This document shows, piece after piece, positions 4,667 to 21,908 of a stretch of 64,000 nucleotides of DNA. The stretch is taken from IMG/VR virus record IMGVR_UViG_2576861193_000002. One strand, given 5' to 3'. Origin of the DNA: a virus. Its lineage: Duplodnaviria > Heunggongvirae > Uroviricota > Caudoviricetes. The translations under genes and the position numbers were made by a program. The notes beneath the pieces are model-generated. The model made no database searches and was not told where the DNA came from. It saw only the letters and a program-made list of their open reading frames with translations. How positions within the stretch are numbered: position 1 is the stretch's first letter; every line of letters starts with the position of its first letter.

Positions 4667-4803
4667 ATCTAAATATTCTTTCAATTATAACCACCTTGCT
4701 GCAATATTATGATTATACTGTATAAAATTTAACTCCTCTTAGATCTTACTTCACTGTTCCTTATGAAACAATCATCAAAATGAATCATATTGTAGTTAAG
4801 ATT

Positions 4804-6228: not shown

Positions 6229-6624
6229 CTAACCTCGCATGTCAAAGCCAGATTTCTGAAAATCTCTGTAGACTTCCGGATTGTTGAAGGCCGGAAATTT
6301 GGCTTTATGAGCTGCGGACTTTATCGCTTCGCAATAGGCTTTATCACCGTTACTGGTAGATATTTTTAACGCCGTGCCATCCTGAGAGAATTCCATATGC
6401 AACCTGCATTTTTTCCCTTTCCAGTTATGCGGCTCATCAAGTTTGGCATTAATTGCAGCTCTGATTCCCCGCGCTTGCGCCCCCCATTCATCCTGATCAT
6501 CCCAGCGTCCTGAACTGCAACTACCTGTAGCAGTAGTTTTGTGGCAATCTGAAGGGTGTAAAGGTGTGCATCCCGCAACAAAACCGACCCAAAAAGTCAA
6601 CATAACGATTTTCTTTAATCCCAC
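6229..6624 (-). CDS. prophage lipoprotein with divergent TolA domain III-like C-terminus
   Basis: 131 aa; signal peptide + lipobox (VAGC); C-terminal region alignable with the paralog at 6775-7203. Confidence 0.6.
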   Translation of the reverse strand: MGLKKIVMLTFWVGFVAGCTPLHPSDCHKTTATGSCSSGRWDDQDEWGAQARGIRAAINAKLDEPHNWKGKKCRLHMEFSQDGTALKISTSNGDKAYCEAIKSAAHKAKFPAFNNPEVYRDFQKSGFDMRG

Positions 6625-6774
6625 TTCTTGCTCCTCAATCCATTAAAATCTCAGCAATAGTAGTTGTTACGTCCGCCACTGGCTCAGAGCTGACTATCCG
6701 CTAAATTTAGCTCAGTGCCGTAGCTGTGTCAGAACAAACCTAAGCCGAAACCGTTTATTACAAAACAATAAATA

Positions 6775-7203
6775 TCAGGGTTTAAAATCCAGCACCCCAT
6801 TTTGAAATACTTTATATACTTCCGGCGAAGGGGGGGCAGGTATATCAGCATTCTTTATCGCATTCATCGCTTCACGACATAAATCGAGGTCTCCACTTTC
6901 TCTTTTAACCTCCAGTAGAAGGCCATTCGGGGCCATATGCATTCTCAGTGTACACTCTTTTCCTGAATACTTACTCGCATCCCCGAACTGTTTTTCGATG
7001 GCGCTCTTGATTTGATGGGCATACAGACGGATATCCTCACTAACATCAGAAGTACGTTCAGATGAACTCACATACTGTGTCTCTATTGCTTTATCGGAGT
7101 AATATGATGTACGGTCATGATAATTTGTCGATACAGCATCAGTGCACCCGATAATAATCCCACTAATAATCAACGTAAGAATTGATGCGCTACGAAAACC
7201 CAT
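6775..7203 (-). CDS. prophage lipoprotein carrying a TolA C-terminal domain (domain III)-like module
   Basis: 142 aa; lipobox IIGC; C-terminus …IKSAIEKQFGDASKYSGKECTLRMHMAPNGLLLEVKRESGDLDLCREAMNAIKNADIPAPPSPEVYKVFQNGVLDFKP closely resembles E. coli TolA C-terminus as recalled. Confidence 0.7.
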   Translation of the reverse strand: MGFRSASILTLIISGIIIGCTDAVSTNYHDRTSYYSDKAIETQYVSSSERTSDVSEDIRLYAHQIKSAIEKQFGDASKYSGKECTLRMHMAPNGLLLEVKRESGDLDLCREAMNAIKNADIPAPPSPEVYKVFQNGVLDFKP

Positions 7204-8140
7204 TTTTCCTCACATATGTCATATAGTAAAGGATTATATATACCGTTGTTTTGGACGCTCAAACAGCGAATCAGATCAAATAAAACGCACATTTGTTAAC
7301 ATTTACACAAAGTCTGCGTGGGATATTCTGAAAGAATATCCATAATGTGGAGAGAATCTATTGAAGTGCATGGTGCCGGGTGCCTCCCGGTGAACAAAAT
7401 GTTCGTGATACCTGTCGGCGACAGAAAAGGTTAATGGTATCACCCCACCGCACAGGGGGATTCACCATGCAGGAGTTTTCTTAGCAAACTCACTGCGCGC
7501 CCGGCAACTCCCAACCACATAAAATGCGGAGTTTGTGGTATTTATGCATATAACTCGCAGGAATTATCTTAAAAAACTGATGTCGATCCGGATTAAAAAG
7601 AAGCAGGTCATCATCAGATGACTGGAAAAAAGGAAAACAAAAAATACTCATCATACAGTTTTGATTGCAGGGATGAGCCTGCTATGCACAATATGCAGAA
7701 TATAAGCAAGATAAAAATATGCAGGCATATTATTTCGGATTTTGTTATTAACACAACCTTTTTAATAATCATTTGGCATACAATAAACCAGCCCAAAAAG
7801 AACCGCCTAAACAGGCGGTTGGTCAATACAAAGGATGCTTCGTCTTTATTATAGTAATCTGAGGCGTCGGGTGTCTTGTATCAGACAACATATTGTCCCG
7901 CTAAACAGCGAATTACAAACCACCCTGCAATGATCTCTCATCTCATTTTATATGAGTTGACGACATCAGGATAACGCATCATCAGCCCCTGCCAAGAAAT
8001 ATCAAAACTCCCGCCAGCAATGTGTTATCACAATAATGTAAAAAAAACACAGCACCGAAACTATAACTGGTCTCTGTTATAATTTGGAGCAGAAAGACCA
8101 GTTGCCCAACTAGCAGCATTCTCCCCTGCTTTCCTGACGT

Positions 8141-8167
8141 AAAAAAACCGCATTAAGCGGTTTTTTT
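8141..8167. terminator. bidirectional intrinsic terminator downstream of Q (tR'-like)
   Basis: A7-ccgc-attaa-gcgg-T7 perfect hairpin flanked by A and T runs. Confidence 0.6.
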
Positions 8168-8247
8168 ACGATGTCCATGTCTGCAATCCGCCTCGCGATA
8201 CAGCTTTGCGAAGCATAGCAAAATTGAAGCAGTTTATACGTAAGAAA

Positions 8248-8790
8248 TCAAGCCATTTTCTCAGCAAATGATTCACGCATGGGAATATATAGGGCATACT
8301 CAGCAACAGCTAACCAATTAGCAATCCGTTTTTCGCATGTGCTAAAACACCACTCTGGGTGTGCATCATTTAGCAATTCAGCCATTTTGCGCTTAGTCAT
8401 CCCCCGCCCTTCATAGCGTTGCCGGAGAATGCAAATCAATCCTGGATGCTCTGCCAGCACCTCACTTATGACTCGATCAATACATAACGCCTCTGCATCA
8501 GTACAATGCGCCAGCCAGCTCTTTTGCTTGCCGTTGATCATCTCTCGCAAAAACGCTTCCAGCTCAGCTTTCTCTATTCCCGCTTTTTTCATTCTGCGCA
8601 GGGCTTCATTAATGGCTGTTTTCGTCAGTTTTTTGGATGCCAACAACTGATTGAACATATTCCCTGACCTGCCACCGCCAATATACGACCAGCGCCCCCA
8701 CATACGTAGTTTTCCCTGAATCCAGACACTTTCCAGCGTGGTGAGGCGAAGGTGTTCTCCGCTTTTTCCTGTATTCGTTGGGTAAATCAT
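8248..8790 (-). CDS. late antiterminator Q-like protein
   Basis: 180 aa; position between nin-like genes and tR'/lysis cassette; Cys-containing Q-like C-terminus. Confidence 0.7.
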   Translation of the reverse strand: MIYPTNTGKSGEHLRLTTLESVWIQGKLRMWGRWSYIGGGRSGNMFNQLLASKKLTKTAINEALRRMKKAGIEKAELEAFLREMINGKQKSWLAHCTDAEALCIDRVISEVLAEHPGLICILRQRYEGRGMTKRKMAELLNDAHPEWCFSTCEKRIANWLAVAEYALYIPMRESFAEKMA

Positions 8791-9077
8791 AAATGACCTT
8801 TCTTTCTCCAGATTTCTTGTGTGCGAAAAACCCCTTCAGCATGCATCAGGCGCAATTCTTCTTTGGTGTAATCGCTGGTTTTTACCCGCCCGTCGATTAG
8901 ATCGTGGCATGAGCTACAGGCTATCGCCGCCTGCATATCGTGTGGTTTTGTCGCTGTTCCGCACGTCCCCGCCAGCCTGTAATGCGCCAGCACAGAGGTT
9001 TCGGGATTGTGATTGCAGTAGCCAGGGATTCTGATCTGGCACATCTGGCCTTTAGCCGCTTTACGTAAATTCACCAT
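8787..9077 (-). CDS. YbcO-like nin-region protein (DUF1364-like, Cys-rich)
   Basis: 96 aa with multiple CxxC/H motifs; translationally coupled to Q. Confidence 0.65.
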   Translation of the reverse strand: MVNLRKAAKGQMCQIRIPGYCNHNPETSVLAHYRLAGTCGTATKPHDMQAAIACSSCHDLIDGRVKTSDYTKEELRLMHAEGVFRTQEIWRKKGHL

Positions 9078-9676
9078 TACGCAAACTCCAGTAGTTGTGC
9101 GGCCACATTTTCAACTTCCTCCTGAGAGGAGAATTTACGGAACAGAATCCAGTTCCACAGCACATTCAGTACAGATTTATAAACCTGCTGAAACTCGACT
9201 TCGTCCACATTCGCAAAAGCGATGGATTTTGCCCGACGCCCACGGCTACCGTCCGGATAAATATGCTCGGTGTAAAATCCGGCCTGAATGGTTACCCACT
9301 CGCGGAAAGCCTCAAACGACTTTAGCAACGCCGTATCCCGGGTTCTACGAGTCGCAACGGTGTTAAGGTATTGCTCTGCGGCATCACTCAGGGCTGGCGT
9401 GTGTTCCCGACCAACTGATTCGCACAGGTAATCAACGAAACCAGACAGCAGTTCTCGTTCGCGAGGCGTGATCGCCCCACCGACCGGAGTCCAGTAATCG
9501 AATCCCAGTTGCAGGAGTTTGAAAAAACGCTTGTGGAATGCGTAGTTACGCACACGCTTAAAGTCTGCGTGTATCCACTCACCTATTTTGATTTGATGCA
9601 GAAAATCGCAACTCTCCGGCGTCGCCGGGAGAAGTAAACCAGAAGAAGTTTGTTTGACCAGTTGTATATGCGCCAT
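9077..9676 (-). CDS. YbcN-like nin-region protein (DUF1367-like)
   Basis: 199 aa; synteny with ybcN-ybcO-Q of lambdoid prophages. Confidence 0.65.
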   Translation of the reverse strand: MAHIQLVKQTSSGLLLPATPESCDFLHQIKIGEWIHADFKRVRNYAFHKRFFKLLQLGFDYWTPVGGAITPRERELLSGFVDYLCESVGREHTPALSDAAEQYLNTVATRRTRDTALLKSFEAFREWVTIQAGFYTEHIYPDGSRGRRAKSIAFANVDEVEFQQVYKSVLNVLWNWILFRKFSSQEEVENVAAQLLEFA

Positions 9677-9949
9677 TTCTCAATCTCTCGATGGCGCAGT
9701 GCAGCAGATGCCAGTTGTTCAGGCTGACGTATAAAGTATAAATAAACTGGTTCCAGTGTAAAGCCCCCACCTTAATGGAATAAAAACCAAACAACAGATT
9801 GCTGGGATACAAACAACGCTTATTATTAAAAGCGGTTAAACAAATTAAATTTTAATGTTATGCAAATTTGTCAGATCACCATAATATCTCATTTGAAAAC
9901 CGCTGAAATAACAATCCTATCAGGATTAATCATATTAAGGTGAGTAAAT

Positions 9950-10036
9950 ATGGAAAACAACAAATCTGCACATTACGCTCCTTTTTTATCTGTAATACTT
10001 TTTGTTTTTTGCTGTGTATGGGCATTATTTTTATAA
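9950..10036 (+). CDS. candidate 28-aa hydrophobic small protein
   Basis: ATG preceded by SD aaggtgag; MENNKSAHYAPFLSVILFVFCCVWALFL; AT-rich intergenic region next to hok. Confidence 0.3.
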   Translation: MENNKSAHYAPFLSVILFVFCCVWALFL

Positions 10037-10113
10037 AAATATTCACAGATAAAATAAACTCGCCGAATCAGGTTAAGTGTGGGTGCGTTGAGGATGCCTG
10101 ACACATCAGAGGC

Positions 10114-10135
10114 GGCGAGGGATTTCTCCCTCGCC
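10114..10135 (-). other. stable stem-loop at 3' end of hok transcript
   Basis: ggcgaggga-tttc-tccctcgcc perfect 9-bp stem just downstream of hok stop. Confidence 0.4.
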
Positions 10136-10144
10136 TAGTCACTC

Positions 10145-10300
10145 TTACTCCTCAGGTTCGTAAGCTGTGAAGACAGCGACCTCCGTCTGACCGGTTCGGA
10201 TTCGCACCTCGCAGAGGTCTTTCCTCGTTACCAGTGCCGTCACTATGACGGTTAAACAGATGACAATCAGTGCGACTAACATCGCCTTTTGCTGCTTCAT
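10145..10300 (-). CDS. hok: Hok/Gef family type I toxin (HokD/RelF-like)
   Basis: MKQQKAMLVALIVICLTVIVTALVTRKDLCEVRIRTGQTEVAVFTAYEPEE; SD aaggag upstream; in-frame upstream extension in the six-frame ORF. Confidence 0.85.
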   Translation of the reverse strand: MKQQKAMLVALIVICLTVIVTALVTRKDLCEVRIRTGQTEVAVFTAYEPEE

Positions 10301-10780
10301 AGCCTGCTTCTCCTTGCCTTCCGGCGCGTAAGAGGCTAACCTACATGTGCAAAGCATGAAATTGGCCTCAGATTAATGTTAAGCGTCTTGCCGGACGCGT
10401 AATGTTATCTGGGGCTTTTCTCTATCTGCCTTTGGTGTTCATGCCTGAGGCAGATAGCCTCAAGCACCCGCAGCAATTCTACTTAACTCCCGTCACCTCG
10501 CCAATATAAAATCAATCAGAAAGGCGATCCATAAGAACAACAGCAAGACAATAAATTGCCATTACAGCCGCAATAGCTAGCGCACATTTGAGAACCAGCA
10601 CGACAACCTCCTGTATTGGACGTACACCAGTTCTGATAAATATGAGGCTGTCTCATCATTGATTCAATATAACTATTGGGTATAGTTTCTGTGATTTTGT
10701 TCTGTAGAAATGGAACACAACAACCAGTCACCACCAGCACTTCTTTAAATACGCCAAGTCCGACGCAAGCTAACCTTCTA

Positions 10781-10804
10781 GTCCGCTTTGAGCGAGGAGC
10801 GGAC
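10781..10804. repeat. hairpin repeat R0 (GTCCGCT-10 nt-AGCGGAC)
   Basis: Same 7-bp stem as copies at 13847 and 17520. Confidence 0.55.
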
Positions 10805-11020
10805 CAAACCCGGCCAACTGACTCTTAAAGGGGCCGCAGGAATTTTTCGTCTGAACTTTCGAAGCTCCTCTCCCTGAAGACAGAAAACTTCTGTGTGCTG
10901 TGGGAATATTGAATCTTTGCCTTAGATATAAATAATTTTATCCCGCCTGAAGTTTACATTATTTTATTTATCTGTTTTTCTAAATCAGACTGCACTCCTT
11001 ACTTAAATCAGGAGCCAGTC

Positions 11021-12220
11021 ATGCCATTTGTTATTTATGTGTTTACTATCAGTGCCTTTGCGCTCGGACTCGCGGAATTTGTCCCCATTGGGCTGACAGA
11101 CGTTATGGCTCAGGGGTTGTGTGTGGGTGTGGAGCAGACCGGGGCAGCGGTTACAACCTATGCACTGGGGGCAACGTTCGCGGCACCCGTACTGTCTGCG
11201 CTGACAGCAAGCTGGAGCCGGAAAAATGTAATGCTTACAACTGCCGTTGTGTTTACTGCCGGTAGTCTGGCGGCCGCGTTTGCAGCCACATTACCTCAGC
11301 TCCTGTTAGCGCGGTTCATTGCTGGTCTGGGACACGGCCTGTTTCTGGCTGCGGCATCCAGTACCGCAGCTCGTCTTGCTGGACCGGGTAAAGCAGGCAG
11401 AGCGGTGGCTGTGGTATTTGGTGGCTTTACTCTGGCGATGGCAATCGGCGTACCGCTGAGTACATGGTTGGGGGGGGTGGTCTCATGGCGTCCAGTTCTC
11501 GGCGCTATTGCCGCTTTTGGCGCGTTCGGATTCCTTGGACTGTTGTTCGGTATGAAAGATCCCGTACGCAGCGTGCCCGGTGAACATAGTGACTCAGCAA
11601 TGCAGAATATCGGCATGCTGTTTAACCGTAAGTTGCTGGCCGGCGCGCTGGTTACGGTGCTGGCGTATGCAGGCTCGTTTACGGATTACACCTTTATCGC
11701 ACCTATTCTGACGCAGGTGACAGGGGTTACCGGAGCAACGGTGAGTCTGTTTATGCTGGTTTACGGTATTACAGCTGCGGTAGGTAATATTCTTGGTGGG
11801 AAACTTACCGACAGCATGGGGGTTAATCGTGCCAATATACTCATCATTAGCGGCATTGTTGTTGTCGTGCTTGGTATGTGGCTGCTGTCATCCTCACCGG
11901 TGAGCATGGGCATTCTGGTTGCGCTGCTGGGTATGGTGACATTTGCCGCAGTGCCGGCACTGCAGGCCCGTCTGATTGGTGTCGCTGAGCAACATGCTCC
12001 TCATGCGCATGGTGTTGCTGCCGGCCTGAATATTGCGGGCTTCAACTCAGGTATAGCGCTGGGATCAGTACTGGGCAGCATTACTATAAGCCACGCCGGT
12101 ATCGTGTATACCGGTATCAGCGGTGCGATTGTTTCTCTGCTCGGCCTGCTGTTGCTGCTTGCACAAATCCGTCGCAGCCACAGTCGTAAATTTCAACAGG
12201 TTAAAATCGTAGGCCAGTAA
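11021..12220 (+). CDS. MFS transporter (cargo gene)
   Basis: 399 aa, ~12 TM, Gly/Ala-rich MFS signature; GC-rich versus surrounding phage DNA. Confidence 0.85.
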   Translation: MPFVIYVFTISAFALGLAEFVPIGLTDVMAQGLCVGVEQTGAAVTTYALGATFAAPVLSALTASWSRKNVMLTTAVVFTAGSLAAAFAATLPQLLLARFIAGLGHGLFLAAASSTAARLAGPGKAGRAVAVVFGGFTLAMAIGVPLSTWLGGVVSWRPVLGAIAAFGAFGFLGLLFGMKDPVRSVPGEHSDSAMQNIGMLFNRKLLAGALVTVLAYAGSFTDYTFIAPILTQVTGVTGATVSLFMLVYGITAAVGNILGGKLTDSMGVNRANILIISGIVVVVLGMWLLSSSPVSMGILVALLGMVTFAAVPALQARLIGVAEQHAPHAHGVAAGLNIAGFNSGIALGSVLGSITISHAGIVYTGISGAIVSLLGLLLLLAQIRRSHSRKFQQVKIVGQ

Positions 12221-12231
12221 AGGGAGGTTAT

Positions 12232-12924
12232 ATGCTTACCCGTGAAAATATGCTTAATGGCACATTTGTCAGGGTGCATGAAGCGCTGCTCCCGGCGAAT
12301 ATGCTCTGGGACGCTGAAAAAATACGCGCATCAATGAACTCTACTCTGGAGGAGCGCCCGACGGGTGCTCCTGTCTGGATATTTGCCTACGGGTCATTGA
12401 TGTGGAATCCCGTGCTGGCGATTGAAGAAATGCAACGGGCCCGTCTGAAAGGATGGCAGCGCAGTTTCTGCATTCGTTTGATATCCGGACGAGCGACTCC
12501 TGATGTCCCCGGCAGGATGTTATCGCTCGACGAAGGTGGAATTACCGAAGGTATTGCGTTCAGACTGCCGGAATCGACTCTTATTAATGAGCTGGAAATT
12601 GTCTGGACGCGCGAGATGATAACCGGTCTTTACCGTCCGGTCTGGGCAGACGTTTCGCTAGGAAACGGTGAGGAAATTCAGGCGCTGGCTTTCGTATCAG
12701 ACAGACTGCATCCGCATTATGAACAGGACAATCTTACAGCGACCGTAGCGTTGAGCATCGCATCTGCCCGTGGAGACATTGGCACGAATGCAGATTATGT
12801 ATGGAAACTGCAGGCCACTCTGGGTGCGTTGGGAATACGGGATGATTACGTGAGTGAACTGGCCCTTGCTCTGCATGAGGCTCCCTGTAACGATAAACTT
12901 CATCAGCGAGGCGCTTCACTATGA
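12232..12924 (+). CDS. ChaC/gamma-glutamylcyclotransferase-like protein
   Basis: 230 aa; IFAYGSLMWNP motif typical of GGCT/ChaC fold. Confidence 0.7.
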   Translation: MLTRENMLNGTFVRVHEALLPANMLWDAEKIRASMNSTLEERPTGAPVWIFAYGSLMWNPVLAIEEMQRARLKGWQRSFCIRLISGRATPDVPGRMLSLDEGGITEGIAFRLPESTLINELEIVWTREMITGLYRPVWADVSLGNGEEIQALAFVSDRLHPHYEQDNLTATVALSIASARGDIGTNADYVWKLQATLGALGIRDDYVSELALALHEAPCNDKLHQRGASL

Positions 12925-13802
12925 GCCATCTGAGCCATCTGCGAACGTTTCTTGAGGCCTATCGCTCTGGCTCCTTTTCAAAGGCGGCAGAACTACTGGG
13001 CATCACTCAGCCCGCGGCGTCACAGCATATCCAGTCTCTTGAGACTCTGGTTGGTAAGCGTCTGTTTATCAGGCAGGCCAGAGGCGTGACGGCAACCGAA
13101 GCTGCGGATGAGCTTGCCCGCTCAGTTTCACCCTTCATTGATGGTCTGGAAGAAAAGCTGTCCTCTTTCCGGTCAGGCTCTGTACGCGGGGGAACAATTA
13201 ATCTGGCAGGACCGCCAGATTTTATTCATTCCCGGCTTGGGACAGTAATGGCTCCACTAATGAAGGAGGGGTATCGCCTACGCTTTCATACCGGCAATAA
13301 GCAACGTATTTATTCCCTTTTGCATGACGGGAGCGCCGATCTCGCTGTTACCGCATCTATGCCTGATGACCGTCTGTACGGCTATGCACATCTACTGACT
13401 GAACGCATGCTCCTTGTTCATGCTCCCGCCATGTCAGAGATCATCGGATCAGAACCTGGTGCTGAAACGCTTGCCTCATTACCGCTGATTGCTTATGACG
13501 AAGAGTTGCCACTGATTAGAGCGCTCTGGGCCTCCATGTTTCAGAGAGCCCCTGAGATGCAGGCTACATTCACCATTCCGGATTTACGTATTATCCGCGA
13601 CTTGGTCTGTGACGGCCACGGGTGGACAGTGCTGCCGGATTATCACTGTGACAATGACCTGAAAAGTGGTCGCCTGATTTCAGTGACACCTGCAGACCTC
13701 GCTCCGACTAATCATCTTTATCTGGTCTGGAACAAAAGGACGGCTAATAACAGCCGAACCGCCTATGTTCGGGATTACATTCTTAAAACGTTTCCGCGTT
13801 GA
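12921..13802 (+). CDS. LysR-family transcriptional regulator
   Basis: 293 aa; N-terminal HTH (…FSKAAELLGITQPAASQHIQSLE…); overlaps previous gene by 4 nt. Confidence 0.85.
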   Translation: MSHLSHLRTFLEAYRSGSFSKAAELLGITQPAASQHIQSLETLVGKRLFIRQARGVTATEAADELARSVSPFIDGLEEKLSSFRSGSVRGGTINLAGPPDFIHSRLGTVMAPLMKEGYRLRFHTGNKQRIYSLLHDGSADLAVTASMPDDRLYGYAHLLTERMLLVHAPAMSEIIGSEPGAETLASLPLIAYDEELPLIRALWASMFQRAPEMQATFTIPDLRIIRDLVCDGHGWTVLPDYHCDNDLKSGRLISVTPADLAPTNHLYLVWNKRTANNSRTAYVRDYILKTFPR

Positions 13803-13846
13803 TGTTTGAAACGGATGATTGGCGATGCGTATCATAAGTTACGTAT

Positions 13847-13870
13847 GTCCGCTTCTGGCACAAAGCAGAC
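13847..13870. repeat. hairpin repeat R1 (GTCCGCT-tctggcacaa-AGCAGAC)
   Basis: 24/30 identical to R2; sits between the LysR and DUF2254-like genes. Confidence 0.55.
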
Positions 13871-13932
13871 GCCCACTCTCACGCGAATGCTTTGCCCTTG
13901 ACTTGCCAACAACCGTATCGCTTGCTCCGCAA

Positions 13933-15225
13933 CTATGGTTTTTTATTAGAATCTTCGCCACTAAATAAATTATAATAAATTGATTTTATTAGATATCTGT
14001 CAGAATCTATATGGTCAGCACGAGTAGCATGCTCTAATGTTTCAAATGCTAGGGTTTGTGCGGCTTCAGCAAAAATTCCAGGCCAACCCTTACTCAGCAT
14101 CGACAGTCCTTTAAGTACCCTTATCTGAATTTCCCTCATACTGGCACCATCGCGCGCAACAGGTGAGAAAAAGTCTTCAAGTAGATCGTTATTCTGAAGT
14201 GGTGCAACATGTACAGAAGGATATTTCACTTCTATTTCATCAGATTTATTCTGCGCGTAAGCGGAAAGTATACGTACACCTCTGCCAATGACATCAATGG
14301 CGGTTCCAGGATCGTTCACTGCGGGGGAAAGGGCTCGGCAGGCTATTTCGGCCATGACGCTAAGACAAAATCGGGGGTCCTGAGCAAATGAACGTACATC
14401 CGAGACAATAATCGTCTCAAGTAAATCGGTGCTGATTGATGACTCCTGGCCCTGACTCAGGTACAAAACTGGCGTGGACGGATGTATGAAACTGCCCGGC
14501 TGCGCCACGAGGTATACATGACGGGGATCATTGGTCAGCAGCTTGCTGAGTTTCACCATATCAACATATTCAACATAGCCAATCTTTTTCGGATAAACTG
14601 CAACCGTTCCTTTCGGCTGTTCATTGTTCTCAAGCCATGGATATCCGCCGAGACAGGGATTTCTTGCTCTCGCAATAAATGTTTCGATGGCCGCCTGTTC
14701 TACTTTTGCCGTTGTCTCACCAACCCTCCCCAGAGAGGTCAAATGCTGTATCCAGCGAAGCAATGTGATGAGGATTAAGGCAATGACAACCAGTGTTACA
14801 ATGAATAAAATGACTCTCCCCCTTTCTCCATAAGCTCCCATATTGAGGGCAATAATCCCTACCAGACTGAAGAGAAAAGAACCGATGAAGGTGGCCAGTA
14901 CATTTTGTGTGGTGACGTCTTCAACAACTAAACGAGTAGCTCTGGGAGTCACATTAGTAGTGGCTGAACCGTAGGCTGTGACCATGATGCTCAGCGAAAA
15001 TGTGGTCACTGCCAGCATACTCGATGCCAGTATGTTCAGAATGTTATCGACTGCTTCCGCACCAACCTTCACGGAAACCGACTCAGGTATCATTGATTTA
15101 AAAAGAATTGATAAAAGGGCCGTTATTATTGCGACAATTGCGAATAACGTTGCCCTGAACCATAGTTTTTTAAATGTCTGCTTCAGCATCCATTTCCAGC
15201 GTGAAATCATTCTGCATTCCCTCAT
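13933..15225 (-). CDS. DUF2254-like membrane protein
   Basis: 430 aa; N-terminal TM helices then soluble domain. Confidence 0.55.
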   Translation of the reverse strand: MRECRMISRWKWMLKQTFKKLWFRATLFAIVAIITALLSILFKSMIPESVSVKVGAEAVDNILNILASSMLAVTTFSLSIMVTAYGSATTNVTPRATRLVVEDVTTQNVLATFIGSFLFSLVGIIALNMGAYGERGRVILFIVTLVVIALILITLLRWIQHLTSLGRVGETTAKVEQAAIETFIARARNPCLGGYPWLENNEQPKGTVAVYPKKIGYVEYVDMVKLSKLLTNDPRHVYLVAQPGSFIHPSTPVLYLSQGQESSISTDLLETIIVSDVRSFAQDPRFCLSVMAEIACRALSPAVNDPGTAIDVIGRGVRILSAYAQNKSDEIEVKYPSVHVAPLQNNDLLEDFFSPVARDGASMREIQIRVLKGLSMLSKGWPGIFAEAAQTLAFETLEHATRADHIDSDRYLIKSIYYNLFSGEDSNKKP

Positions 15226-15273
15226 ATTGCAGCCGGGATAAATAAATGCCGCCTCTGTGGCGGCATGTTGCTG

Positions 15274-17277
15274 TTAACGAACCAGATGCAGGAAGTGCAG
15301 GTGTTTTTCGTACTGGTCCAGTATGTCATTAATCAGCTGTTCCTGATTCCAGCCCATTACATCATAATTTTGGCCGCCCTCTTTGAGATAGACTTCAGCG
15401 CGATAATATCGATGTTGTTCACTCTGCTGCTCATCATTATCCAGCGCAGCGAGCGCGAAGGTCGGTGAGTTATACCCGCGAAGCCTCACTTCATATATAT
15501 AATTCAGCTCGTTGCCCAAATCGACTTCAAGGCGAATACGATCCTCGGCGGCGTCACTGATGTGGCTTATCGTTCCCTGCTTGTTAAGTTCCTCCTGAAC
15601 CAGCGTCATGGCGGGTTGGATAATGTCGTCCATAAAACGTTTCACAAGAGAGCGCTTCGGCAAATACGCGATATTGCGTAACCTTCTCTGCCAGGGAATT
15701 GGGTTACGTGCAGCCGTAGGAGCAATAGTCGCCATGCTAAGGCTTTCACGCTTGGTCAAATCCCGACGCAGGGCTTTTAACAGTCCGTATATGGATATTA
15801 ATAAGATAACTGAGAAGGGCAATGCACTCGCTATCGTTACGGTTTGCAACGCACTCAGCCCCCCTGCGATCAGCAGGGCAATAGCAACAACGCCCATGAG
15901 CGATGCCCAGAAAATTCGCTGCCAGACGGGCGTGTTTGCCACCCCACCTGATGCCAGAGTATCCACAACCATTGCCCCCGAATCAGCAGACGTTACAAAG
16001 AAGACGATGACCATCGCCATTGCAATGAATGACAGCACGGAAGAGAACGGGAAATGCTCCAGGAAATTAAACAGGGCAAGCGCAACATCCTGCTGAACGG
16101 TATTGGCGAGGTCAGTGGCGCCCTGGTTCATGATGAGATAGATGGCGCTGTTTCCAAACACCGTCATCCACATGAGCGTAAAGCCGGCGGGAACAAACAA
16201 CACGCCAGTCACGAACTCACGAATTGTCCTGCCGCGGGAAACGCGTGCAATGAACATACCTACAAACGGCGACCATGAAAGCCACCATCCCCAGTATAAT
16301 AATGTCCAGCCCCCCAGCCAGTTGCTCGACTTGGGTTCATACGCGTAAAGGTTGAACGTTTTACTCACCAGTTCCGACAGATAACCACCCGTATTTTCCA
16401 CAAATGACTTCAGCAGAAGCACAGTGGGACCCAGGCACAAGACCAGCGCCAGGAGCAACACCGCCAGGCCCAGATTAAGCTCAGACAGGATGCGTATTCC
16501 CTTGTCCAGGCCGGACACCACCGAAATCGTCGCTAACCCCGTGATGACCACGATCAAAATGACCTGTACCGTTTCATTGATGGGCACGCCGAAAAGATGG
16601 TTCAAACCGGCATTCACCTGCAATACACCGTAACCCAGCGATGTTGCAACGCCAAAGACAGTGCCTATCACGGCGAAGATATCAACCGCGTGGCCTATAG
16701 GCCCGTAAATGCGATCGCCGATAATGGGATAGAGCGCAGAACGCAGCGTTAAAGGCAGACCGTGACGGTAACTGAAAAAGGCCAGAATCAGCGCCACGAT
16801 GGCATAAATTGCCCATGCGTGCAGACCCCAGTGGAAGAACGTCAGGCGCATGGCTTCCTTCGCTGCCGCAACGGTCTCTGGAGTGCCGACAGGTGGCGAA
16901 AGATAATGCATCACAGGTTCGGCAACGCCAAAGAACATCAGGCCGATCCCCATCCCTGCCGAAAAAAGCATCGCGAACCAGGAGTGGTAGCTGAAATCAG
17001 GCTGCGCATGGTCTGGGCCCAGCTTTATATCACCGTAACGTGAGAGTCCAAGGAACGTGACGCTCAGTAAAATCAGGGCCACAGCAAGTATGTAGAACCA
17101 GCTGGCATTCGTGAAGATTTGTTGCTGAAGTAGTTTAAAATTTTTGTCGGCGACATCCGGGAATACGGCGGCAAAGGCGACAAGAAGGAAAATTAGCAAA
17201 GCAGATGTAAAGAATACCGCTTTGTTAATCTGGCTTGTAGACTTCTTTGGGGTTGTATCATTTTCACTCATAATCAT
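15274..17277 (-). CDS. BCCT-family (betaine/carnitine/choline) transporter
   Basis: 667 aa; 12-TM BCCT-like core with Trp-rich signature (…GGWTLLYWGWWLSWSPFVGMFIARVSRGRTIREF…). Confidence 0.85.
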   Translation of the reverse strand: MIMSENDTTPKKSTSQINKAVFFTSALLIFLLVAFAAVFPDVADKNFKLLQQQIFTNASWFYILAVALILLSVTFLGLSRYGDIKLGPDHAQPDFSYHSWFAMLFSAGMGIGLMFFGVAEPVMHYLSPPVGTPETVAAAKEAMRLTFFHWGLHAWAIYAIVALILAFFSYRHGLPLTLRSALYPIIGDRIYGPIGHAVDIFAVIGTVFGVATSLGYGVLQVNAGLNHLFGVPINETVQVILIVVITGLATISVVSGLDKGIRILSELNLGLAVLLLALVLCLGPTVLLLKSFVENTGGYLSELVSKTFNLYAYEPKSSNWLGGWTLLYWGWWLSWSPFVGMFIARVSRGRTIREFVTGVLFVPAGFTLMWMTVFGNSAIYLIMNQGATDLANTVQQDVALALFNFLEHFPFSSVLSFIAMAMVIVFFVTSADSGAMVVDTLASGGVANTPVWQRIFWASLMGVVAIALLIAGGLSALQTVTIASALPFSVILLISIYGLLKALRRDLTKRESLSMATIAPTAARNPIPWQRRLRNIAYLPKRSLVKRFMDDIIQPAMTLVQEELNKQGTISHISDAAEDRIRLEVDLGNELNYIYEVRLRGYNSPTFALAALDNDEQQSEQHRYYRAEVYLKEGGQNYDVMGWNQEQLINDILDQYEKHLHFLHLVR

Positions 17278-17519
17278 TTATTCCATTAATTAAATCCGCA
17301 CTGGATAGAAGGTACTACCTCTCACAGAGTAGCAAAGTTCAACTGGCTATGCGGGGTTAATCGGAATGCATGGTGGAATGAGTGCCGATACAAATCATCC
17401 TATATTCTAAGGAGTTTTAAGTTACTCAGCCTGCCAATTACTGGGGCATTTAATTTGTATGATCTGTATCAAAGCTGGGATATAAGTTAAGTGAAGTATA
17501 TTAGGCACGAATTACCAGC

Positions 17520-17543
17520 GTCTGCTCTTGGCACAAAGCGGAC
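17520..17543. repeat. hairpin repeat R2 (GTCTGCT-cttggcacaa-AGCGGAC)
   Basis: Related to R0/R1; lies just beyond the BCCT gene. Confidence 0.55.
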
Positions 17544-17611
17544 AACCACGCTAGCTCTACCCTGTGCCACAAAATGTCAATTTGCATCTGAACTAATGCA
17601 CTTTAATCTCG

Positions 17612-18034
17612 TCACTTCAATAAATACCGAACATCCCCCTGATAAAACGACAATATGCGCTGCATAACTTCGCTCTTCCGGCACTCGCGACAGATTATGT
17701 TTAGGCGACTGTCGTAGCGACGTATTTCTCCGTCAGGTAATGACCAGATAAGGTCCGGATCAACCACAACCGGTTTCTTCAGCTTTGCCCTCGATAATTT
17801 TTTGCGGGCATTTTGCCAGTCTTTACGAGCCTGTTCAGACGGGAATAACCCGTAGCCAGAATTGTATACATCGCCACTGGCAACCAGCTCTCTGGCCAGA
17901 ACGCTCATCAGATATCTTGTTGCCCCAGTTTTAGCTTCCAGTTGTCGTAACGTCTCGCGCCCACTCTGGCGTACGAGTTCAAGAACCTGCCCTTTAATTT
18001 TTTCCCGCTCTTCTTGTGTAAAAACTTTTGCCAC
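17612..18034 (-). CDS. hypothetical phage replication-region protein
   Basis: 140 aa ORF immediately downstream of O-like initiator; no recognised helicase-loader motifs. Confidence 0.45.
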   Translation of the reverse strand: MAKVFTQEEREKIKGQVLELVRQSGRETLRQLEAKTGATRYLMSVLARELVASGDVYNSGYGLFPSEQARKDWQNARKKLSRAKLKKPVVVDPDLIWSLPDGEIRRYDSRLNIICRECRKSEVMQRILSFYQGDVRYLLK

Positions 18035-18074
18035 AAGCCCTCCTGAAAATTACCTCATGACCAGAAATTAACAC

Positions 18075-19151
18075 TTACCCCCTGAAGCCCGGCGGAATTT
18101 CGTTATCCGGTTCAGAAATATGATTCACACAACGCTGGTTGTTCGTGCCGCTTACCGGGAGCAACCAGGGGTTCTCAAAATTCCGGTCCGGTCCAAAAAA
18201 CGTCGTCGCTCGCTGAACAAATTCCGTTCCCGTTTTCCCGGTAGCCGCCAAGTATCTTGCGTAACGCCTCACGCCATCCAGCATGGCCTCTGGTGGCACC
18301 CCCTCGCGTAATCTGGCCTTCCAGGCACTGAAAGCGGATTTCTTCGGGTTTGCCCCAGCACGCAACGGGTACTCCCGCCAGACCTGTTCGAACACATCCG
18401 GATAATCCACTCGTCCCACAGACTGCCCGGTGTTTTCCGGGACTACCCGATCGGCTTCCCGCTGAATGGCGGAATCGGCTTCAGGCTGCTGCAGTTGGTG
18501 TGATTGCTCCGCCCTTGCGGTCATCACCTGCTGCACAGCGCCCGAATCGGCTTTCAGCGCATACGCTGAATCGGCTTCCGGTGTCGTGCCTGCTGGCTGA
18601 CCAAGATTGACGGTCTGAACATCCCCTGCCTGGTTCGTGGCGTTTTTTACGCCATGGACCATAGTGTTTTGATCTTCTTGATCTGTATCTTTATCTGTAT
18701 CTTTATCTGTCGTGACTCGTCGTGACATGTGCGTGACATTTCGTGACGCGCCGTGACAATCGCCATTTTGTTCCCGCTTTCTTTCCCTCTCTCGCTGCGC
18801 CCTCTTGCGCTCTGCAGGAGATTTTGCGGTTTGCGAAATATTGCCGTTGTCCTCTTTAAGCACCTGGCGTTTTTCCCATCCAGTGATTAAATCACCATCA
18901 AGTACCCGCCCCTGCATCGTCTGCAAAATTGAATCAATTACCTCTTCTGTCACGTCGAGCGCACTTGCCAAATCTTCTGTCGTGACATCAATGTGACCTC
19001 GCGTGACATTTCGTGACGCGCTCACCAGGAGGTGGATATACACTGCCATCACTGTTGCAATTGGCTGTCCTGACACCCTGGCAATTGTTCGCCACTTAGG
19101 GTCATTTGGCATGTCATGCCATAATCTGAGCCAGGCGTTAGCCATACTCAC
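18075..19151 (-). CDS. replication initiator (O-like N-terminus, YdaU/DnaT-like DUF1376-type C-terminus)
   Basis: 358 aa; encloses two iteron clusters; acidic DKDTDKDTD linker; position after ydaS/ydaT. Confidence 0.65.
   Translation of the reverse strand: MSMANAWLRLWHDMPNDPKWRTIARVSGQPIATVMAVYIHLLVSASRNVTRGHIDVTTEDLASALDVTEEVIDSILQTMQGRVLDGDLITGWEKRQVLKEDNGNISQTAKSPAERKRAQRERERKREQNGDCHGASRNVTHMSRRVTTDKDTDKDTDQEDQNTMVHGVKNATNQAGDVQTVNLGQPAGTTPEADSAYALKADSGAVQQVMTARAEQSHQLQQPEADSAIQREADRVVPENTGQSVGRVDYPDVFEQVWREYPLRAGANPKKSAFSAWKARLREGVPPEAMLDGVRRYARYLAATGKTGTEFVQRATTFFGPDRNFENPWLLPVSGTNNQRCVNHISEPDNEIPPGFRG
18682..18757. repeat. candidate replication origin: AT-rich tandem repeats plus five CGTGAC iterons at ~10-bp spacing
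   Basis: CGTGAC at 18711, 18721, 18732, 18742, 18752 preceded by atctgtatcttt tandem repeats, inside the initiator gene. Confidence 0.55.
18981..19017. repeat. second iteron cluster (4 x C/TGTGAC at 10-bp spacing)
   Basis: Motif starts at 18981, 18992, 19002, 19012. Confidence 0.5.
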
Positions 19152-19216
19152 CTCTTTTGATACCGAATCTTTTTACTCACAAATTGCCGGAAGTGATCCG
19201 GTATGAATATTGCGAG

Positions 19217-19642
19217 TCAATGCACAGCCACAATATTTCCTGCAGGGCCACCACGATTCATCTGGTTGAAACCAGCGATCGCCACTGCGACAAAATCATC
19301 AGCGTCTCTCACCAGTCGTTCCCGCGTCTCCACTAGTTCCCGAAAATAGGCTGAGCTATGGCTGCGCATTCGGGCCACCAGCAGAGGTGGCATTGCTTTT
19401 TCGATAGCTGGTAACAACGCCTGAATTTTTTCAACTGCATCAGGGGTGTCTTTCTCTACCCAGCGGAAAATTTTCTGGGTATTGCGAGCCAGGGCTTCCG
19501 GATGGCTGTCGTCATACAGTTCTGGGAACGTCATACCCAGTTCAAAATAAGCCCTGGTTATTTCAGCTGCCGGAACTTTTTCACCGTCCGGATGCGCCCA
19601 GGCATTCATCGCCATGCGGATGTGTTCATGCTTGATTTTCAT
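19217..19642 (-). CDS. ydaT: YdaT-like protein (CII-like regulator / putative toxin domain)
   Basis: 141 aa; synteny racR - ydaS - ydaT - initiator as in Rac. Confidence 0.65.
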   Translation of the reverse strand: MKIKHEHIRMAMNAWAHPDGEKVPAAEITRAYFELGMTFPELYDDSHPEALARNTQKIFRWVEKDTPDAVEKIQALLPAIEKAMPPLLVARMRSHSSAYFRELVETRERLVRDADDFVAVAIAGFNQMNRGGPAGNIVAVH

Positions 19643-19907
19643 GAATCAAGCTCCTAGAAAGTGGTTGTGTTAACATTTTGGTATCTTCCAGCTCGGGCCA
19701 AATATTCATCCAATCAAAAGGCCTTAGTTGCTGACGTGTAACTTCACCATTACTGGCTCGCTCAATAAGGACACATAACGATGCCCCTAACACTTGACCT
19801 TTACTCAATGCCTTTCTTAGATAACCGATGCTGGTACCACACTCGCATGCAAACATACGCTGTTCATCTGACGAAAGAGAATTGAGAAATATTCTTAATT
19901 CTTCCAT
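19626..19907 (-). CDS. ydaS: YdaS-like Cro/C1-type HTH protein
   Basis: 93 aa; divergent from repressor gene; HTH (…ECGTSIGYLRKALSKGQ…). Confidence 0.65.
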   Translation of the reverse strand: MEELRIFLNSLSSDEQRMFACECGTSIGYLRKALSKGQVLGASLCVLIERASNGEVTRQQLRPFDWMNIWPELEDTKMLTQPLSRSLIHENQA

Positions 19908-20007
19908 AGCTACTCCTTAGTAAACACAGCAAAGAATACCCATAGGTAAACAAAAGTCAATACCCACAGGTTGTTTACCTTGCAGTAATCGCATCTATTA
20001 TTTACCT
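19908..20007. promoter_or_regulatory. divergent immunity promoter/operator region (pR/pRM-like)
   Basis: Three related dyad sites of the TACCCAT(A/G)GGTA family (aatacccataggtaaaca, tacccacaggttgtttacc, tttacctatgg). Confidence 0.55.
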
Positions 20008-20427
20008 ATGGACAAATATGAATTTAGACGACAGCAACTCATCAAAATTCGTGATGAGAAATGCGATGGTAAAGCGGTTAACGTGGCCAGAAAGATCGGG
20101 CGCGAGCCTTCTTATGTATCAAGAATGTTGTACCCAGAGGGGAAAAAGGGAAAAAAACGGATCGCTGATGATATGGTGGAGATTATCGAAGAGTCCTTTG
20201 GGTTACCCCGGGGATGGATGGATGGTATCGTTTCATCATCAACGAACACAGCCTCCAGTTATGAAACAAGGGTTCTAACGCCACGACAACGTATTTTTTT
20301 AGATCTCTTAGACGAACTGCCAGAAAGTGAAGCGGATAACTTATTAAAAACTCTTGAAGAGAAAAAACAGTATTACAATATGATCTACGAAGAAATCCGT
20401 AAAAAGAAAGCACAAAACGCATCATAG
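20008..20427 (+). CDS. racR: prophage repressor RacR-like
   Basis: 139 aa; N-terminal HTH (…AVNVARKIGREPSYVSRML…); divergent from cro-like ydaS. Confidence 0.7.
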   Translation: MDKYEFRRQQLIKIRDEKCDGKAVNVARKIGREPSYVSRMLYPEGKKGKKRIADDMVEIIEESFGLPRGWMDGIVSSSTNTASSYETRVLTPRQRIFLDLLDELPESEADNLLKTLEEKKQYYNMIYEEIRKKKAQNAS

Positions 20428-20468
20428 CTCACCAAACAACTAGTCACCAGTTAAGACACCGCAAAAAG

Positions 20469-20507
20469 TTACCCATGGGTATTTACCTTTTAAATACCTA
20501 TGGGTAT
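20469..20507. promoter_or_regulatory. oL-like operator pair
   Basis: Palindrome ttACCCATGGGTat and aaatACCTATGGGTAt, same family as sites at 19935-20012. Confidence 0.5.
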
Positions 20508-20681
20508 CCTTCTTTTCATACCAACCCACCCCGCCCCACAGAATGCAGGGCAATACTTCGAGTTACCAGGCAGTGGTCAGGGGTTAAGTAGCCAGCCCGA
20601 GGCGTAAGAACATGACGGCGGGATTCAAATTTTGCAGTGCAGCAGTTAGTTCCGCCACCCGGCGTTAAGGGGAGAGATAAG

Positions 20682-20816
20682 ATGGTGCATTACGAAGTAG
20701 TTCAGTATTTGATGGATTGTTGCGGTATCACTTACAACCAGGCTGTGCAGGCTTTACGCAGCAACGACTGGGATCTCTGGCAGGCAGAAGTCGCTATACG
20801 TAGCAACAAGATGTGA
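20682..20816 (+). CDS. ydaG: small Rac protein YdaG-like (44 aa)
   Basis: Below the ORF-track cutoff; MVHYEVVQYLMDCCGITYNQAVQALRSNDWDLWQAEVAIRSNKM; synteny. Confidence 0.55.
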   Translation: MVHYEVVQYLMDCCGITYNQAVQALRSNDWDLWQAEVAIRSNKM

Positions 20817-20826
20817 GATTCGCAAA

Positions 20827-20982
20827 ATGCAAAAAATCGACCTCGGCAACAACGAATCCCTGGTGTGCGGCGTGTTCCCCAACCAGGATGGAACGTTCAC
20901 TGCCATGACGTATACCAAAAGCAAAACATTTAAAACCGAAACTGGTGCGCGCCGATGGTTGGAGAAGCACACAGTAAGCTAA
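20827..20982 (+). CDS. ydaF: small Rac protein YdaF-like (51 aa)
   Basis: MQKIDLGNNESLVCGVFPNQDGTFTAMTYTKSKTFKTETGARRWLEKHTVS; synteny. Confidence 0.55.
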   Translation: MQKIDLGNNESLVCGVFPNQDGTFTAMTYTKSKTFKTETGARRWLEKHTVS

Positions 20983-21467
20983 CGATTAAAACGTCTACTC
21001 CTGCTGTTCCAGAATAACTTCATAAAATGGGAGTATTTTTCGGTGACGAGATAATAAGAACAGTTTGCGCTATCACTCTGATGTTGAATGATGCCCTTCC
21101 GTTCTAATTTTTTCATAACCGGGTTACGGCAAGGAGAAGTGATAATAAGATTTCCTGTTTTAAGGAAATCTTTAAATACAGCGATTTCTTTCTCAGATAA
21201 ACGAAGCAATACTCGTTGCTCTGGTAGTAATGAATAATGCTTTTGAATATGTGCTCGCAATCTTGAGAAGGAAATGGCGACCACGAAAGAAAAGGCAAAA
21301 ACGATAATCTGAAAGAGCCAAGGTATTTCAGTATAAGCATTGAATGCGTCAGTAAACTCTTTCGGTATCAGCCAGAGAGTGAGACCAAAAATGATAATCG
21401 TATACATAAGTCTTTCGAGTGGCTCGTTAGCAAAAAGTTTCAACAATGGAGTAAATACATCCAACAT
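20979..21467 (-). CDS. sieB: superinfection exclusion protein SieB
   Basis: 162 aa from internal Met (MLDVFTPLLKLF…); two TM helices; Rac synteny. Confidence 0.75.
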   Translation of the reverse strand: MLDVFTPLLKLFANEPLERLMYTIIIFGLTLWLIPKEFTDAFNAYTEIPWLFQIIVFAFSFVVAISFSRLRAHIQKHYSLLPEQRVLLRLSEKEIAVFKDFLKTGNLIITSPCRNPVMKKLERKGIIQHQSDSANCSYYLVTEKYSHFMKLFWNSRSRRFNR

Positions 21468-21908
21468 ATCAATAACTCTCAACTGTAAGGGTATTGAAAT
21501 GTTAACACAAGCTCTCGCTGTAGGGGTATAGCCGAGACCACCGAAGCCCGGAGGTGGTGAAATAAAACCGGGCACAACACGAAGGCGCATTTCCGATATC
21601 CATAAAGAGTCGGTCTTGTCTGTTAAATTTAAATGGTGGGAGTGCGCCTCCGGTTGTAAATAACGACATTGCTGTGTGTAGTCCTGGCGGCATCAGTTTT
21701 TTTCTTGAAGTTCGGCTGATGTCCGCCCTTTTTAAAGTGAATTTTGTGATGCGGTGAATGCGGCTAAGCGCACGTGGCACAGTTAAAAGTCATGTTAGTC
21801 CTTATTGGTTTGGGTGGGAAAGCCGACTGTAATTGTTAACTGGTTGCAGTCACCTGGAGGCACCAGGCACCGCATCAACAAAGTTCATTTGTAAAAATGG
21901 AGATAATT

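Follow-up and report, generated by a model that had tools for sequence, protein, structure and literature searches.

Two cargo cassettes bounded by 24-bp palindromic sites in the accessory slot of a Rac-family prophage

Introduction

Prophage cargo genes, or morons, in variable hotspots form a known class, and the gene island studied here is a member of it. The island lies in the Rac-family lambdoid prophage that makes up the first part of a viral DNA stretch of 64,000 nucleotides (IMG/VR record IMGVR_UViG_2576861193_000002), which is called the window throughout. Among the described systems, the Z/fun and tin/old loci of phage P2 are reportedly such variable moron hotspots, a description said to go back to Nilsson et al. 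in 2004 and Odegrip et al. in 2006.

The cargo of the hotspots in P2 and P4 elements is swapped rapidly (Rousset et al. 2022, PMC9122126; NAR 2026, PMC13586616), and the mechanism of the exchange was left open (Rousset et al. 2022, PMC9122126). In a word search for palindrome and hairpin, neither article mentions a boundary motif at these hotspots. By the same kind of search, PMC13586616 has no inverted repeat, stem-loop or motif, and the word repeat in PMC9122126 refers to protein repeats only.

The region analysed here, between the DUF977 gene and the hok/sok genes, is a standard accessory-gene slot of a Rac-family lambdoid prophage. Its island holds two cassettes of transport and metabolic genes, and a 24-bp imperfect palindrome stands at each cassette boundary. 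Our overall best explanation, with a probability of about 0.7, is that two site-bounded cassettes occupy the cargo slot of a Rac prophage, that they are exchanged within the sites and that no helicase loader has been replaced. Literature searches with variants of the site sequence found no paper, and neither did a search on the Rac prophage with BCCT or DUF2254. Broader literature searches on cargo hotspots led to the P2/P4 articles only.

Results

Boundary sites of the island

A preliminary description of the window had placed five genes, for an MFS transporter, a ChaC-family protein, a LysR-family regulator, a DUF2254 membrane protein and a BCCT transporter, at 11021-17277 between the replication and nin/Q modules of a lambdoid prophage. 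The coordinates and families of all five are borne out by the list of open reading frames (ORFs) and by Pfam, and their position by Pfam, PHROG and Rfam. The island itself extends farther on both sides, with borders at 10805-17519, or 10781-17543 from site to site.

The site is a 24-bp imperfect palindrome of the form GTCYGCNNN-GWGCSA-NNNGCRGAC, with arms of 7-9 bp and an asymmetric 6-bp centre. Two classes of centre are seen, GAGCGA in class A and GTGCCA in class B. When oriented by their centres, the sites point into the cargo, and cassette 2 is flanked by two B sites in direct orientation. Such inverted arms around a short asymmetric spacer are the geometry of a recombinase core site.

The homology breakpoints of the island all coincide with the sites. 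At the left end, phages Tritos and mEp460 and E. coli A20 cease to match at 10795-10805, and the homology to a Raoultella cassette begins at 10781. The junction site in the middle is the right limit of the Raoultella homology (13865) and the left limit of a unit common to Kluyvera, Pseudocitrobacter and plasmids (13843/13845). At the right end, this 3.7-kb unit reaches its limit at 17541-17544, and the homology to Tritos, mEp460, A20 and IHE3034 restarts at 17512-17521.

In all, the window holds four sites versus 0.37 expected, and its 36 kb of host DNA holds none. The fourth is a degenerate site between two TolA-like ORFs (Table 1), which is kept in 10 of 12 related viral loci (L147-L158, all but L149 and L157).

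As hairpins the sites are weak (-3 to -7 kcal/mol, with z from -2.4 to +0.6), two of the three being no better than shuffled sequences. In a terminator scan they are not terminator-like and no T-tract follows them. An Rfam scan of 5500-21500 at E <= 1 returned only sok and STnc100, with no match at the sites. In a comparison by eye, the site has no convincing match, to our knowledge, among the shufflon sfx, hix/gix, dif, lox, REP/BIME, ERIC and boxA sequences.

Two independently assorting cassettes

Elsewhere the two cassettes are found apart, with their own ends and with differing neighbours, so the island is two independently assorting cassettes. We consider the anatomy of the island described in this way highly likely to be correct. 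The first cassette is an MFS-ChaC-LysR operon with an upstream leader, and the second is a BCCT-DUF2254 gene pair.

Cassette 1 occurs alone, from site to site (10781-13865), in Raoultella ornithinolytica at 92% nucleotide identity, where it adjoins a P4-type integrase near ychF/pth. The operon stands without sites in an ordinary chromosomal context in Enterobacter sp. BIGb0383, where its homology covers 10908-13805 only. The closest relatives of the MFS protein outside E. coli are 95-96% identical and belong to Enterobacter, Pantoea, Raoultella and Klebsiella. The operon of cassette 1 is carried on the chromosome in the group formed by Enterobacter, Klebsiella and Raoultella.

Within the operon, the LysR start overlaps the ChaC stop (ATGA). 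The best NCBIfam matches of the MFS protein (Cmx/CmrA, sugar efflux, AraJ and NepI) all fall under their cutoffs. The gene content suggests that cassette 1 would give the lysogen a transport function coupled to the turnover of glutathione or gamma-glutamyl compounds and regulated by LysR.

Cassette 2 corresponds to the 3.7-kb unit at 13843-17544, which recurs elsewhere with identical ends. Kluyvera ascorbata and K. georgiana have it at 90% nucleotide identity, as part of an island beside proBA that also carries CbtA, RadC and YfjS-type genes, and a lambdoid prophage of Pseudocitrobacter vendiensis has it at 91%. L088 and L140 are viral contigs in which the BCCT cassette adjoins DUF977 and is followed by other cassettes, one of them with an Mrr-type nuclease. 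The slot of the P. vendiensis prophage (L018, 11633-16419) contains beside the BCCT cassette an alkyl sulfatase, a FadL-type outer-membrane transporter and a 289-aa gene.

On plasmids, at least 80% of the cassette-2 sub-block is present in 1,462 cases, mostly large Klebsiella conjugative plasmids at about 93% identity. Some plasmid copies of the 3.7-kb unit reach 99.8-99.9%, with 99.9% on the IncY plasmid pPO125. The DUF2254 gene accompanies the BCCT gene in every close enterobacterial locus and in several distant ones, and the pair is present also in Leclercia, Pseudocitrobacter cyperus and others. Cassette 2 is a gene pair native to Kluyvera-like enterobacteria and is widespread on plasmids too.

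On pPO125 (NZ_MW077912; L023, 2249-9699), about 4 kb separate the BCCT-DUF2254 cassette from qnrS1/ISKpn19. Two more site-bounded segments precede the cassette there, and these hold an integrase fragment and hypothetical genes.

The BCCT protein is 42% identical to K-12 BetT across its full length (residues 6-667), the C-terminal domain or extension included. As a BetT-type carrier, it would probably serve the lysogen in the uptake of choline or osmolytes. Relative to the phage early-right operon, transcription of cassette 1 runs in the opposite direction and that of cassette 2 in the same one, and both cassettes would need promoters of their own in a repressed lysogen. A promoter scan returned only consensus promoter-like matches.

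The block had also been called GC-rich, which holds in a mild form only. The island has 50.0% GC, above the 45-46% of the phage flanks and the 46.7% of the host part, with 52.0% in cassette 1 and 48.2% in cassette 2, but its DUF2254 gene has 44.7%. The view of the block as accessory and horizontally acquired cargo agrees with its variability across genomes and with the chromosomal homologues that both cassettes have in other enterobacteria.

At least 80% of window 10000-18500 is present in 297 of 5,426 complete E. coli genomes. In E. coli TW01221 (NZ_CP074725), whose Rac is otherwise 100% identical, the insertion sequence (IS) IS1A replaces window 10978-17672, a deletion that takes out the entire island together with the 3' end of DUF977. 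A composite transposon bounded by IS elements was considered and rejected, as there is no transposase ORF or annotated IS within 8.2-19.2 kb and the IS insertions in other strains are secondary.

Sites in other mobile elements

A search of viral contigs with the site pattern listed at least 120 loci with 243 sites. Among these listed loci, the centre falls into the same A and B classes. The sequence flanking the sites is not conserved, so the element is the 24 bp alone. At least two sites occur in 80 of the 120 loci, where less than one such locus is expected by chance in a rough estimate made without a control run.

The sites are arranged with a strict polarity. Among the non-redundant pairs spaced 0.3-7 kb, 73 of 90 point inward and combine one A with one B site (matches listed). 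At the short junctions, the sites are back to back in all 28 cases, 19 of which have an offset of exactly 42 bp and a semi-conserved 18-bp spacer (again among the matches listed).

The matches listed enclose about 100 cassettes, each of 1-5 genes in either orientation, and 133 cargo proteins fall into 98 protein clusters. The cargo sampled from them includes FRG, Mrr-type nuclease, HEPN/RES-like, STAND-like, DUF4209, NUDIX and HAD proteins. By these families, most of the cargo looks defence-related or like typical morons.

The backbones around the sites are diverse. The lambdoid DUF977-hok slot is one of them, with the DUF977 gene in 22 of the 120 listed loci, and others among these loci are lambda O/P phages, P2-type tail regions (about 20 loci), gpA regions and islands with a P4-type integrase. 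A survey of the recurrent genes beside the arrays in the listed loci, made in search of a recombinase, met ordinary phage backbone genes only.

In phage P2 (AF063097), fun(Z), a classical gene of lysogenic conversion, is bracketed by sites at 15335-15358 and 17432-17455 (L167, 2336-2359 and 4433-4456). The left one is a B site with 1 mismatch, 61 bp after gene G, and the right one is an A site with 3 mismatches, just before the pF promoter. The P2 tin/old region and phage Wphi have no site. Nilsson et al. are said to have possibly reported these sites for P2-like phages in 2004, so our claim to novelty is kept modest.

The two arms of a site behave differently when loci are compared. In pairs with the same backbone and different cargo (n = 384 pairs), site positions 1-15 are 96-100% identical, and the identity is 0.43 at position 16 and 0.33 at position 17. 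Where different backbones share the same cargo (n = 43), similarity persists in the cargo-side arm and the other arm varies. The backbone-side arm and the centre go with the backbone, and the cargo-side arm goes with the cargo. Hence, the drop in identity places the joint inside the 6-bp centre or right at it.

Compensatory Y/R changes are not in excess in the arms (C-G 63, T-G 38, C-A 16, T-A 5). Together with the weak hairpins, this argues that the arms are conserved as sequence and not as pairing.

The slot and the replication module

The preliminary description had further held that the island replaces the helicase-loader region and the nin genes, and that the prophage is probably replication-defective for want of a loader. 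The window indeed has no helicase-loader gene of the DnaC or lambda P type. In tblastn with YdaV and a lambda-P homologue, E was above 0.9, and Pfam and PHROG found no DnaC-like or Phage_lambda_P member among the scanned ORFs (8248-10740 and 11021-20427). The rest of the claim is not supported: nin-region genes are present (NinB-like, DUF1364 and Q-like), the same loader-less module occurs in other phages, and the slot also follows modules that bear a loader.

The module of an organizer gene and DUF977 without DnaC or P is found in deposited complete phage genomes, so that its lack of a loader does not support a replication defect. In the complete 46-kb record of phage Tritos, the module is 96% identical at the nucleotide level, a DnaC or P gene is likewise absent, and the slot is filled by another single gene, for a 444-aa FRG-domain protein. 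The same slot layout is present in mEp460_ev081 (with yet another cargo), in IHE3034 (with QueH cargo) and in E. coli A20 (224 bp only). The A20 slot (L144, 3482-3753) is near-empty, its A and B sites standing 224 bp apart with no gene between.

In viral contigs L041, L087 and L128, the slot follows DUF977 downstream of YdaU and the DnaC-like YdaV. In the Pseudocitrobacter prophage, the BCCT cassette lies between an intact lambda-type O/P and NinB. Thus, the slot occurs behind loader-less, YdaV and lambda O/P modules, and its place as a cargo position is fixed irrespective of the type of loader.

The organizer itself is a full-length member of PHROG 3729 (residues 3-358, E 2e-257), and its residues 124-358 match PHROG 1701, named DnaD-like helicase loader (E 8.5e-63). 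It presumably recruits the host DnaB/DnaC. The replication module would then be complete for its type, so that the cargo would not have replaced a loader.

The last 19 residues of the organizer (...PDNEIPPGFRG; window 18075-18134) match the C-terminal end of YdaU from K-12 Rac; their match to the C-terminal tail of DnaT, the host primosomal protein, is weaker. A PDB sequence search with the organizer gave a weak match to the DnaT C-terminal tail only. This tail may be a docking motif shared with YdaU and DnaT. The AlphaFold model has a predicted local distance difference test score (pLDDT) of 56, and its N-terminal domain alone is confident and roughly winged-helix-like. A Foldseek search of the PDB with the model returned nothing at E < 0.2.

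Iteron-like CGTGAC repeats lie inside the organizer gene at a spacing of about 10 bp, four at 18719-18757 and a second set at 18979-19017. The gene contains also three 12-bp tandem repeats at 18676-18711, which encode TDKD repeats. Both kinds of repeat lie in the part predicted to be disordered, and they are likely to mark the origin of replication.

Prophage setting

The first 28 kb of the window is the Rac-family lambdoid prophage, integrated beside intR/ttcA, and by annotation the remainder is E. coli chromosome (dbpA, zntB etc.). Read from right to left, the prophage has intR, xisR, recET, kilR, sieB, CI/Cro-type regulators and a YdaT-like gene. The order continues leftward with the 358-aa replication protein, DUF977, the five-gene block, hokD/sok and the NinB-like, DUF1364 and Q-like genes. 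The leftmost part has lysis genes, trkG and terminase genes, and the window begins at the terminase genes.

The DUF977 gene is the conserved right shoulder of the cargo slot, and hokD/mok with sok is its conserved left shoulder. The IntR gene is at 26902-28137, and the ORF list and the annotation give no integrase near the slot. Strains 13C1065T and ET979, the two closest complete genomes examined, have Rac remnants without head, tail or morphogenesis genes. A full-length match to the small RNA STnc100 of Rfam (86.6 bits) lies at 7314-7500 on the minus strand, between the Q-like gene and the TolA-like ORFs.

Table 1. Coordinates of the island, its sites and the neighbouring modules in the window
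Feature	Position	Strand	Basis
Boundary site, class A (GAGCGA), GTCCGCTTTGAGCGAGGAGCGGAC, left end of the island	10781..10804	+	Pattern scan, homology breaks
Boundary site, class B (GTGCCA), GTCTGCTTTGTGCCAGAAGCGGAC, junction between the cassettes	13847..13870	-	Pattern scan, homology breaks
Boundary site, class B, GTCCGCTTTGTGCCAAGAGCAGAC, right end of the island, 68 bp beyond the DUF977 stop	17520..17543	-	Pattern scan, homology breaks
Fourth, degenerate site (centre GAGCCA, one mismatch), GTCAGCTCTGAGCCAGTGGCGGAC, between two TolA-like ORFs, upstream of the lysis genes	6671..6694	-	
Cassette 1, 3.04 kb, MFS-ChaC-LysR operon with about 215 bp of upstream leader	10805..13846	+	Pfam, homology, GC
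MFS transporter, 399 aa, DHA1-like	11021..12220	+	Pfam MFS_1, E 2.8e-42
ChaC-family gamma-glutamylcyclotransferase, 230 aa	12232..12924	+	Pfam PF04752, E 3e-35, 122.3 bits vs cutoff 21; RefSeq gamma-glutamylcyclotransferase
LysR-family regulator, 293 aa	12921..13802	+	Pfam HTH_1 and LysR_substrate
Cassette 2, 3.65 kb, BetT-type BCCT transporter and DUF2254 membrane protein	13871..17519	-	Pfam, NCBIfam, homology, GC
DUF2254 membrane protein, 430-aa ORF (RefSeq product 425 aa)	13933..15225	-	Pfam PF10011, E 1.6e-92
BCCT transporter, BetT subfamily, 667 aa	15274..17277	-	Pfam BCCT, E 7e-199; NCBIfam NF007399, 752 bits, cutoff 695
DUF977 / Ren-like protein, last gene of the replication module	17612..18034	-	Pfam DUF977; PHROG 142
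Phage replisome organizer / replication initiation protein, 358 aa	18075..19151	-	PHROG 3729; NCBI name phage replisome organizer
hokD/mok toxin gene and sok antisense RNA	10145..10469	-	PHROG 251; Rfam sok, 116 bits; annotation
nin/Q module: NinB-like (DUF1367), DUF1364, Q-like antiterminator (DUF1133)	8248..9676	-	PHROG 319, 131, 753

Discussion

In the mechanism that we propose, the cargo would be swapped by recombination inside the 24-bp sites. Recombination of B with B would let a circle integrate or excise, and recombination of B with B and of A with A together would swap a cassette between two elements. The direct orientation of the B sites around cassette 2 fits a circle with one B site that integrates into a resident B site.

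That a sequence-specific recombinase acting in trans would perform the exchange at the sites is a suggestion to which we grant somewhat less than an even chance. The broadest version is that the A and B palindromes are the sites of an undescribed trans-acting system of cassette exchange, common to lambdoid phages, P2-like phages, islands with a P4-type integrase and Enterobacteriaceae plasmids. This we offer tentatively, as a proposal more apt to be wrong than right.

Several points weigh against exchange at the sites by a dedicated enzyme. No recombinase for the sites has been identified, and IntR, the sole integrase of the window, is encoded 9 kb away and has an att site of its own. A precise loss of B by B, which joins cassette 1 directly to DUF977, is found in none of the 5,426 E. 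coli genomes; excision, if it occurs, is rare, and the sole loss seen is the IS1 deletion. The site pattern was defined from this window before it was searched, which biases the set of loci to close matches, and many pairs in the arm comparison are not independent. That comparison, moreover, cannot tell site-specific exchange apart from homologous exchange limited to the conserved core. Homologous exchange at micro-homologies is in fact the main rival: the sites would be short conserved linker homologies, at which general or phage-encoded homologous recombination (RecA, RecET, Red, Orf/NinB) swaps the cassettes. The lambdoid phages, this prophage included, carry recE/recT and a NinB-like gene, the inferred crossover window may simply be the stretch common to both partners, whole-slot swaps could use the long DUF977 and hok homology, and the want of a recombinase and of any excision polymorphism in E. 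coli counts on the same side. However, the P2-like, P4-type, lambdoid and plasmid backbones share only about 15-24 bp, yet about 100 different cassettes (matches listed) end exactly there, and such a length is short for efficient homologous exchange. Mere homology also needs no conserved arm sequence, two classes of centre, fixed 42-bp offset or strict polarity. We judge this rival unlikely on balance while giving it a sizeable minority share.

The remaining explanations have smaller shares. The cassettes might be non-autonomous transposon-like units, with the 9-bp cargo-side arms as terminal inverted repeats, a transposase in trans and a palindromic target, in which the insertion would give rise to the two hairpin-like sites at the flanks. 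This would account for a cargo-side arm that travels with the cargo while the other arm and the centre stay with the backbone, for tandem units at a fixed distance and for units in unrelated replicons. But no transposase is tied to the arrays, whose recurrent neighbours are ordinary phage genes, no target-site duplication was seen (without a systematic search), and the near-empty A20 slot keeps its A and B sites separate; the chance of such units is slim. Slimmer still is the chance that each moron brings the sites along as hairpins of RNA or DNA (terminators, insulators or mRNA stabilisers), whose coincidence with the breakpoints would be secondary. Morons classically carry their own promoter and terminator, and two of the sites are just 3' of genes, one between the convergent LysR and DUF2254 genes and one after DUF977. 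Against it, one site is about 240 bp upstream of the MFS operon and not at a 3' end, the loop is conserved in two classes, covariation is missing, the folds are weak with two of three sites no better than shuffled, and the sites have neither a T-tract, a call in the terminator scan nor an Rfam match. The earlier view, that the island displaced a P/DnaC-type loader and nin genes and that a replication-dead prophage was kept for its transport module, is very improbable. It draws on the lack of a DnaC or P homologue in the window, on K-12 Rac, which has the DnaC-like ydaV after ydaU, and on the headless and tailless Rac remnants of 13C1065T and ET979. It is opposed by the identical loader-less module of deposited complete phages, in which the same two sites bound other cargo with nothing missing on either side, by the nin-region genes still in place and by the iteron-like repeats inside the organizer gene.

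Taken alone, the island is ordinary prophage cargo, and its site-bounded cassette structure is the part that matters. The mechanism of hotspot swapping has been open, and a conserved site stands at essentially every cassette boundary; hence the question becomes the testable one of which protein acts on the sites. The site is also a simple sequence handle for delimiting accessory cassettes, defence systems included, in enterobacterial mobile elements. The BetT-type cassette, moreover, moves between prophages and more than 1,400 plasmids, of which pPO125 carries the quinolone-resistance gene qnrS1.

Compared with the known cargo of the same prophage family, the island resembles trkG of K-12 Rac in carrying transporter genes. 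It differs in that trkG is of low GC, lies in the late region and has no 24-bp sites at its flanks. In the window, trkG is at 3209-4684 with 37.7% GC and 32% GC at third codon positions (GC3), without flanking 24-bp sites.

The island is like the P2/P4 hotspots in that accessory genes stand at a fixed position between conserved phage genes with a fast turnover, and in that some systems are shared across elements. Unlike there, the slot here is the lambdoid one between DUF977 and hok, and its cargo is metabolic and transport-related, not defensive.

The integron cassettes are similar in being small units of 1-3 genes with diverse content, in forming arrays and in having imperfect palindromes of conserved geometry on many replicons. 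The junction here, of 24 + 18 + 24 = 66 bp, is within the size range of attC. In contrast, the sites here have no GTTRRRY core and no adjacent intI, attI or Pc, the genes run in both orientations with their own regulators, and the sites are inverted at the cassette flanks whereas each integron cassette has one direct attC. An integron gene cassette is ruled out by the absence of the GTT core and of an integrase near the slot.

The engineered cassette exchange with loxP/lox2272 is alike in its use of the same arms with different spacers, inverted at the cargo flanks, as an analogy of design only. In that design, like exchanges with like at both ends and a deletion between the ends is avoided.

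The pdif modules of Acinetobacter plasmids, which depend on XerC/XerD, are alike in that modules are bracketed by inverted sites of arm, 6-bp spacer and arm, occur on many backbones and have no recombinase inside. The sites here differ in their 9-6-9 form with GTCYGC arms and in their occurrence in Enterobacteriaceae phages, satellite-type islands and plasmids. The E. coli dif site, which we take to be GGTGCGCATAA-TGTATA-TTATGTTAAAT (11-6-11), bears no resemblance to the arms GTCYGCNNN / NNNGCRGAC, and a dif-like XerC/XerD site is ruled out by this unrelated arm sequence. If the trans-acting system proposed above is real, it would be a phage-borne counterpart of the integron cassettes or the pdif modules, and it would explain the precise swapping of defence genes, morons and metabolic genes between unrelated backbones.

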